Origin: Escherichia phage NHEP29
Sequence record: PQ511150.1
Length of the DNA stretch: 64,000 bases
Reading direction: 5' to 3' (one strand)
The notes under the pieces are model-generated. The model searched no databases, was not told the DNA's origin, and saw nothing but the letters and a program-made list of their open reading frames with translations. This document shows, piece after piece, positions 56,112 to 56,170 of the stretch (positions are counted from its first letter, which is position 1; the number at the start of each line of letters is the position of its first letter). The translations under genes and the position numbers were made by a program.

Positions 56112-56117
56112 TTTGAT

Positions 56118-56170
56118 TTCTCCTCTAGTTGACAGGTCTATAGTAACACAACTAGAGGAGAAGTAAACTA
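56118..56170 (-). promoter_or_regulatory. T4-type early promoter (GTTTAC-17-TACTAT) with SD-sequestering inverted repeat
   Basis: minus-strand GTTTACttctcctctagttgtgtTACTATagacctgtcaactagaggagaaatcaaaATG. Confidence 0.55.

Follow-up and report, generated by a model that had tools for sequence, protein, structure and literature searches.

In bacteriophage T4, each of e, soc, 49 and I-TevI has a promoter that lies inside a hairpin of the longer transcripts started upstream, and in these transcripts the Shine-Dalgarno sequence (SD) or the AUG is masked; the e hairpin cuts lysozyme synthesis about 100-fold, and the 2010 review of these cases holds no early-promoter example of masking (PMC3014915). 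A second group of described elements, named PeSLs, consists of repeated cassettes formed by an early promoter, a stem-loop, an SD and an ATG (Arbiol 2010, PMC2839356; Comeau 2014, PMC4122927). Here we consider a stretch of 64,000 nt from Escherichia phage NHEP29 (sequence record PQ511150.1), called the window below, and in particular the minus-strand early promoter of regB at 56112-56170, in which the spacer between the -35 and -10 hexamers is the reverse complement of the SD-bearing leader. On balance we favour, from modelled folding, the view that certain T-even early promoters would restrict translation of their gene to transcripts of the promoter itself, by means of an anti-SD arm that these transcripts would not contain.

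The element resembles e, soc, 49 and I-TevI in that a helix would bury the SD and/or the AUG of RNA started at promoters further upstream, and in that the promoter lies between the two arms, so that its own transcripts should lack the 5′ arm (here by geometry, with an inferred start). In T4 the internal promoter is late for e, soc and 49 (gp55, TATAAATA) and middle/late for I-TevI, and expression is delayed; here, in contrast, the promoter is an early sigma-70 promoter, its own spacer or its -10 box and discriminator make up the 5′ arm, and by prediction the gene would be expressed in the first minutes only. As the late promoter is lacking, we did not consider the element a member of the e/soc/49 set; in our model it would work like them and be a PeSL-type cassette whose stem position and function had not been described. 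A first, sequence-only reading of this DNA had presented it as the T4 lysozyme/soc/49 mechanism extended to early promoters. Geometry, folding and covariation sustain that extension in part, but three of the eight sites that it listed do not follow it.

With PeSLs the element has in common a conserved intergenic cassette made up of an AT-rich upstream region, a sigma-70-like early promoter, a stem-loop, an SD and an ATG, as well as repetition in the genome and a position at insertion, deletion or replacement junctions, with homology breaks at the -35 box. A further shared trait is a stem-loop associated with the promoter: that of PeSLs often falls in the interval from -35 to -10 or overlaps the -10, and here the spacer holds the 5′ arm and the loop holds the -10. 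The PeSL stem positions described are five, covering stems between the two boxes, over the -35 or the -10, upstream, or shortly ahead of the start, and they lack the SD as 3′ arm, whereas here the 3′ arm reaches it. The stems of the RB49 PeSLs are polyG/polyC, those described here are rich in AT and differ in sequence from one to the next. Both PeSL papers (PMC2839356, PMC4122927) read the stem-loops as terminators or attenuators and as recombination sites, SD masking is in neither of them, and the word "translation" is absent from Arbiol 2010 (PMC2839356), a passage of which credits Repoila 1994 with similar early-promoter elements at the internal-protein (IP) loci of T-even phages.

The leader is also of the kind cut by the phage endoribonuclease RegB. 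RegB/S1 requires the single-stranded sequence GGAGRAYARAA and is blocked by structure (Durand 2006, PMC1702504); the SD of regB itself is a documented RegB target in T4 relatives, and regB expression is described as tightly controlled. The 3′ arms described here hold, like RegB/S1 sites, a GGAG followed by A-rich sequence inside the SD; RegB sites are defined as single-stranded, whereas these are predicted to be so only in promoter-proximal RNA. A pairing between a RegB site and a promoter spacer is not mentioned in the RegB studies consulted, PMC1702504 included. The hairpins over the ribosome-binding sites of homing-endonuclease genes (Aeh1 mobE, T4 segB, I-TevII/III) differ in that they do not come from an early-promoter spacer and act on all transcripts, or on early/middle ones. 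Our full-text literature searches found no account of SD masking by early-promoter spacers, of which a mention in older subscription-journal papers is possible.

The regB promoter and the predicted folding of its transcripts

Between positions 55000 and 58000 the window has 98% identity to Escherichia phage RB69 (Mosigvirus, Tevenvirinae) and by this sequence comparison is that of an RB69-like T-even phage; in the RB69 annotation, the gene directly downstream of the element is regB, encoding the GGAG-specific early endoribonuclease. All promoters, genes and promoter hairpins of the window given in this work are on the minus strand. The regB coding sequence (55653..56111, 152 aa) starts with the ATG at 56111. 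Its promoter is GTTTAC-N17-TACTAT, of the T-even early sigma-70 type and not late, with the -35 hexamer GTTTAC at 56163..56168, which fits the T-even early -35 consensus, and the -10 hexamer TACTAT at 56140..56145. The 5′ arm TTCTCCTCTAGTTG (56149..56162) is within the 17-nt spacer, and the 3′ arm CAACTAGAGGAGAA (56118..56131) holds the SD and a RegB-type GGAG at 56123-56120. The minus strand thus reads GTTTAC-TTCTCCTCTAGTTG-tgt-TACTAT-agacctgt-CAACTAGAGGAGAA-atcaaa-ATG. The two arms are perfect reverse complements over 14/14 pairs, with the -10 in the hairpin loop; the inverted repeat claimed for this site is real.

By sigma-70 geometry, we infer that transcription starts at the 7th nt after the -10 box, near 56133 (56132..56134), just after the conserved discriminator AGACCT (56139-56134). 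This start is 2 nt ahead of the 3′ arm, hence between the arms, and it agrees with the published RB69 early-promoter logo, which has C at -3 to -1, and with the consensus of the window given below. Since the 5′ arm is upstream of such a start, it should be absent from transcripts of the regB promoter, and only RNA coming from upstream would carry it and bury the SD. An 81-nt RNA with both arms had a predicted energy of -23.2 kcal/mol (z = -4.1 against dinucleotide shuffles). In an independent and blind inverted-repeat search of the whole 64 kb, the regB pair was among the longest repeats with separated arms, likewise the pairs at 14588-14642, 1686-1730 and 59398-59463; Rfam covariance models gave no match at gathering score in the whole window.

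Folding of read-through against promoter-proximal RNA had been named beforehand as one check of the proposal. We used partition-function folding, with the start of the short RNA set at the 7th nt after the -10 box. In read-through RNA, the probability that the SD is unpaired was 0.00 at regB, at the open reading frames (ORFs) starting at 14588, 1681 and 51836 and at denV, whereas in promoter-initiated RNA it was 0.77, 0.72, 0.47, 0.74 and 0.37, respectively. For a control set we folded the starts of 116 minus-strand genes in long context, and we considered as masked any SD with an unpaired probability <0.1: there were 9 masked SDs among 24 promoter-preceded genes and 6 among the remaining 92 (Fisher p = 4e-4). 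One of these 6 was the endolysin gene e, with its hairpin of the known type (AATACCTCC/GGAGGTATT, 60229..60256) that masks the SD in long transcripts, hence the pipeline recovered a known positive. Predicted energies of the SD-masking promoter hairpins were from -17 to -21 kcal/mol, against -15.3 kcal/mol for the e-type hairpin of the same window, which is an at least equal stability.

Enrichment in the window and covariation in relatives

The minus strand was scanned for GTTTAC (at most 1 mismatch), N16-18 and TAnnnT, followed by an SD and an ATG, which gave 28 early promoters in the window. The perfect stems between spacer and leader were of 14, 14, 13, 10, 9, 8, 8, 7, 7 and 7 bp, the rest being shorter. 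Hence 10 promoters had a stem ≥7 bp, against a mean of 0.85 with shuffled spacers (maximum 5 in 2000 shuffles), and at genomic positions picked at random with the same geometry such stems were found in 3.6% of cases. Promoters paired better with their own leader than with the leaders of the others, none of 5000 permutations matching the observed mean. The enrichment is genuine, yet it spans two different anatomies, one in which the spacer pairs with the SD and one in which the hairpin closes round the -10 box with the SD outside. We also widened the 5′ partner to the whole interval from the -35 to the start, which recovers variants with the -10 and the discriminator as 5′ arm, at the price of a high background, because TATAAT-like boxes pair with AT-rich start regions: a score of 7 was reached by 10 promoters, against about 5 expected and 7 in a reversed-sequence control. 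A generic promoter and terminator scan of the window was uninformative (55 promoter-like sites, 49 expected).

In 20 of the 28 promoters, 26-29 nt separate the -10 box from the ATG; in T4 the interval is 25-30 nt in 16 of 29 promoters. Such a nearly fixed interval implies short early leaders of no more than about 20 nt, in which the SD comes some 10 nt after the 5′ end. Just downstream of the -10, the window has the consensus A..cCTATCaA, which is weaker in T4 (A...ctAT.aa). The conserved leader AGACCTATCAA pointed out by the sequence-only reading is real in the sense of this consensus, but not all of it would be leader, since AGACCT precedes the start and ATCAA would be the first nucleotides of the RNA, and as a bare 11-mer it was not enriched over the window (31 matches, 21 expected).

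Orthologues of regB were drawn from IMG/VR and from metagenomes. The architecture is kept in them while the arm sequences differ, with at least seven arm variants: besides the RB69-like pair of the window, we found TTTTCCTCTTGACTG/CAGTTAAGAGGAGAA in T4-like phages, with two G.U pairs, TTTCTCCTCTTTATG/CATAAAGAGGAGAAA in L010, TCTCCTGTAAG/CTTACAGGAGA in L013 and L016, TCTCCTGTAG/CTACAGGAGA in L030, ATCCTCTCTG/CAGAGAGGAT in L031 and a two-tier helix in L014 and L015 (inner GGGCCAT with ATGGCCC, outer TTCCTT with AAGGAG). The denV orthologues have at least four arm pairs of the spacer type, and in others the 5′ arm is the -10 and discriminator while the 3′ arm is still the SD, e.g. TAGTGTTCTC/GAGAACACTA and AGTAGCCT/AGGCTACT. 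In T4 itself (AF158101), helices that pair the SD are present at regB, denV and nrdC.8, and one from the -10 to the AUG at modB, and stems ≥7 bp were found at 11 of its 29 promoters, against 1.08 expected.

A plain MAFFT alignment of the cassettes loses the register of the helix, and we therefore built register-anchored constructs of 40 nt. In the resulting alignment of 16 cassettes, which is biased to structure because the best register of each sequence was chosen, 84% of the cells were paired, against 45-55% with the partner slid, 11 of the 14 pairs were changed on both sides, and none of 500 column shuffles reached the observed covariation. A second sample was taken by the anchors only: IMG/VR was scanned solely for GTTTAC-N-TCTCC...TAnnnT...GGAGA, which gave 84 distinct cassettes with an SD and an ATG. 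Here pairing went on inward for 3.94 bp on average beyond TCTCC/GGAGA, against 0.96 bp with permuted partners (sd 0.16, maximum 1.63, 2000 permutations), at least 5 extra pairs were present in 45 of the 84 cassettes, against 5.4% of cross pairs, and about 25 different inner-arm sequences were found before 34 gene groups. This result rules out an accidental match between two conserved motifs, and it shows that the pairing itself is under selection.

A masking function predicts loss of the helix where a terminator lies upstream. Among the IMG/VR cassettes, pairing was present in 0 of the 11 with an intrinsic terminator directly upstream and in 69% of 71 others (p = 1e-5), an association that was not significant when counted by gene family (0/4 against 15/30, p = 0.11). 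In the window, the promoters 51892 and 15077 have a clear intrinsic terminator directly before the -35, and their SD-masking helix is weak or broken, which is suggestive of relaxed selection where read-through would be low.

Proposed masking of the SD and rival explanations

We propose the following mechanism, which in the window would affect regB, denV, one motB-like and one ModA/B-like gene, and a small number of short ORFs. A stretch of the promoter that would never be transcribed from that promoter, namely the spacer from -35 to -10 or, at certain promoters, the -10 hexamer with the discriminator, is the reverse complement of the SD region downstream. RNA from the own promoter would begin about 7 nt after the -10, without the 5′ arm, and its SD, some 10 nt into the RNA, would be free, while RNA presumed to read through from upstream promoters would contain both arms and fold into a hairpin of 10-15 bp (-17 to -21 kcal/mol) that buries the SD. 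The masked gene would then be translated solely during the short life (2-3 min) of its own early promoter, that is in a brief pulse. The same helix would conceal the GGAG(A-rich) site of RegB/S1 in long polycistronic RNAs and, given that RegB/S1 needs a single-stranded site, should protect these RNAs from RegB there. Rho-dependent termination of the read-through RNA may be a further consequence, if a cistron that is not translated attracts Rho.

At regB, denV and several more genes this interpretation has good computational support, and it extends to T4. A wider proposal is put forward tentatively, though we hold it a real possibility: across T-even phages, early promoter DNA may double as an anti-SD element before at least a dozen gene families, with regB, denV, modA/B and motB-like genes among them, a switch on transcript origin apparently unremarked in 60 years of work on T4. 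With such a switch, the promoter from which an RNA originates would decide both the translation of the cistron and its cutting by RegB, giving a pulse of expression and insulating the polycistronic RNA.

Several observations weigh against these proposals. Three of the eight sites first listed leave the SD unmasked, and the hairpins closing round the -10 box, for which masking gives no account, equal the SD-pairing set in enrichment and in sequence diversity. The association of promoter and stem-loop is already published, as PeSLs (PMC2839356, PMC4122927). Four of the promoters (56168, 14643, 1736 and 51892) are copies of one repeated cassette, thus eight independent promoters had been an overstatement. 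The regB orthologues that are most distant or odd (L017, L036 and L028/29) lack the helix, and the relatives of the 14588 ORF are mostly without it and have hybrid, broken hairpins. To these are added the register bias of the 16-cassette alignment and the lack of significance by gene family of the terminator association. Also the wobble counts are discordant, because the window favours A.C (the gains being mostly GTTTAC paired with A-rich leaders) while T4 favours G.U, and in IMG/VR the counts were small (G.U 1 against A.C 2, then 6 against 3, p = 0.3-0.5).

Among the other explanations, a possible but unlikely one is that selection acted on the helix chiefly as a shield of the GGAG RegB/S1 site within long early/middle polycistronic RNAs, preventing cuts between cistrons, the lost translation of the masked gene being a side effect. 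The feature is in fact best conserved at regB itself, and the 3′ arms, with GGAGAA and A-rich sequence, come near the 11-mer GGAGRAYARAA, which is fitted at 14588 (GGAGAACAAAA) and at 1681 (GGAGAAUAAUA); by prediction these RegB-type sites are single-stranded in the short transcript only. The RB69-type site of regB (GGAGAAAUCAA) has however the disfavoured C at position 9, and the -10/discriminator variants mask GGAGG or AUG regions, which are poor RegB sites; from sequence, shielding and translation masking are inseparable. Quite unlikely, in our judgement, is a PeSL-type cassette in which the stem-loop attenuates or terminates upstream transcripts, the about 60-bp cassette is a recombination site for gene shuffling and the overlap with the SD is incidental. 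PeSLs with early promoter, stem-loop, SD and ATG have been described in RB49/phi1, T4/PST and KVP40/nt-1, and one RB49 stem-loop acted as a terminator in a lacZ assay. As regards shuffling, homology between the related phages L010 and L011, and between L021 and L022, ends at precisely the regB promoter's -35 box, one same cassette precedes denV in T4 and regB in L030, some cassettes are hybrids whose hairpin is broken, and an identical 46-nt cassette (GTTTACaaccaaggatggttggagTATAATctttctatcttaac) is found in the window at 44653..44608 and 3243..3198, 41 kb apart and before unrelated genes, as shuffled cassettes would show. The -35 breaks and the cassette shared by T4 denV and L030 regB suggest recombination at or within the cassette. 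But recombination accounts for shared sequence and not for about 25 arm pairs each still complementary, nor for an SD that stays the 3′ arm while the 5′ arm moves. An intrinsic terminator has moreover a G+C-rich stem and a U run, whereas here AT-rich stems are followed by AAATCAAAATG; with no U-tract after the 3′ arm the hairpins are not canonical intrinsic terminators, and a terminator scan of the window did not pick up the SD-pairing ones.

We consider very unlikely a role in the promoter DNA itself, where an inverted repeat with the -10 in its loop could, by cruciform or hairpin extrusion, tune promoter opening, promoter strength or the shut-off of early promoters. All three hairpin types (spacer-SD, round the box, -10/discriminator-SD) do put the -10 in or beside the loop, the wobble asymmetry expected of RNA was undetectable, and early-promoter shut-off is still unexplained according to reviews. 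Stems of 7-14 bp with loops of 7-19 nt are however short for cruciform extrusion, sigma-70 binding requires a duplex spacer, and the 3′ arm follows the SD and not a fixed promoter position. Precisely this constancy, by which the 3′ partner is always the ribosome-binding region though the 5′ partner moves, favours a role in RNA and directed to translation, as do the 2-3 G.U pairs in the helices of T4 regB, nrdC.8 and modB and of window promoter 7763, which on the other strand are A.C mismatches. There remains the chance complementarity of a pyrimidine-rich TTCTCC after the -35 and a purine-rich GGAGAA in the SD. TCTCC-like runs often follow the -35, also at promoters with a broken helix, and five-base TCTCC/GGAGA matches are by themselves unremarkable; yet the 3.94 bp of pairing past the motifs, with a permuted maximum of 1.63, and the column shuffles refute such a coincidence, which we regard as extremely improbable.

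Two further candidates were rejected. Translational coupling as the main role was discarded on the upstream stop codons, which are 9-13 nt before the 5′ arm; such a distance is probably just beyond the range in which a terminating ribosome unwinds RNA. A common protein operator was discarded because every hairpin has its own sequence.

If masking by the promoter-derived arm were confirmed, it would be a simple and widespread extra layer in the timing of T4-type early gene expression, in which a gene could be translated only from its own, rapidly silenced promoter despite ongoing transcription in longer RNAs. It would help to explain the tight hold on the RegB nuclease and the escape of some GGAG sites, and some of the stem-loops associated with promoters, so far read as terminators and recombination sites, would gain a functional explanation. 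The proposal is directly testable in T4 (regB, denV, nrdC.8 and modB) with existing genetics, and it offers phage engineering a compact design rule, by which the promoter spacer is made an anti-SD.

Other SD-pairing sites, hairpins round the -10 box and minor observations

The sequence-only reading had listed eight minus-strand early promoters whose spacer would be complementary to the leader, with the SD free in promoter-started RNA and hidden in read-through RNA. Five of them pair spacer and SD, that is 56168 (regB, 14 bp), 14643 (14 bp), 1736 (13 bp), 59460 (denV, 10 bp) and 51892 (8 bp, then broken), and it is at these five that folding gave the expected difference (unpaired probability 0.00 against 0.37-0.77). 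The other three, 47296, 36896 and 30907, close round the -10 and leave the SD unmasked, and one of them may not even be early: by inspection of its sequence, 30907 looks like a middle promoter with a MotA box (CGCTTTA, 12-nt spacing).

The cassette of promoter 14643 (14593..14637) precedes a 105-aa ORF (phrog_2110), and its arms TTCTCCAGTAGTTG/CAACTACTGGAGAA show a double compensatory change relative to regB. Before the 174-aa motB-like gene starting at 1681, the arms TTCTCCTCTGGTT/AACCAGAGGAGAA (1686..1730) form 13 bp with compensatory changes. The denV promoter hairpin (59407..59454) has the arms TTCCTCCAAG/CTTGGAGGAA, of 10 bp, with the SD within the 3′ arm, while the copy before a 59-aa ORF starting at 51836 (51841..51886, arms TTCTCCTC/GAGGAGAA) is partly decayed, 8 bp being followed by mismatches. 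Weaker SD-pairing sites, absent from the earlier list, are 15077 and 38032. A variant geometry, likewise not on that list, is found at promoter 7763, before a ModA/ModB-like ADP-ribosylase gene: TTATGATAGGCTT pairs with AGGTCTATCATGA (7704..7741), that is the -10 hexamer TATGAT and the discriminator pair with the SD-ATCATG start region, in a helix of 13 bp with 3 G.U pairs that masks both SD and AUG. T4 modB has the equivalent helix (AF158101, about 13130-13186) with changed bases, so that over the two phages it is conserved as 12-13 bp with 2-3 G.U pairs.

The hairpins closing round the -10 box have stems of 7-14 bp and individual sequences, and their 3′ arm is in the discriminator and start-site region, the SD being outside. 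At 47296 (47262..47289) the arms AGGTCTAT/ATAGACCT enclose the -10 and the spacer has no pairing with the SD; at 36896 (36870..36896) GATAGGAAGA/TCTTCCTATC enclose the -10 and enter it, the SD being free (unpaired probability 0.61 in read-through RNA); at 30907 (30885..30907) GATGTGGT/ACCACATC have TATAAT in the loop. Further hairpins of this type are, among others, at 51403-51434 (promoter 51434) and 36578-36599 (promoter 36599). Over these sites the SD had an unpaired probability of 0.34-0.61 in read-through RNA. In T4 (L019/L020) they were found at the ipI, ipII, ipIII, trna.4, e.7, mobD.2, dmd and motB promoters. Probably they correspond to the PeSL-like stem-loops that the literature describes for T-even phages, and they too would be present in read-through RNA only.

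Four gene starts with no early promoter, 53697 (tk), 46650, 36885 and 33088, have an SD predicted to be nearly fully paired in long transcripts, and at tk and two of the others it is predicted to be paired in short constructs as well. In these folding models, they may be further structured translation-initiation regions. At 58354..58295 a good early promoter similar to that of T4 ipIII has downstream of it an SD and a mini-ORF of three codons (ATG ACT CGA TGA), which looks like a decayed cassette of an internal-protein locus. Finally, away from promoters, an inverted repeat of 19 nt with 89% complementarity and 1 nt between its arms (GACGAATGTTTTCCAATTA/TAATAGAAAAACATTCGTC) was observed at 50828-50866.

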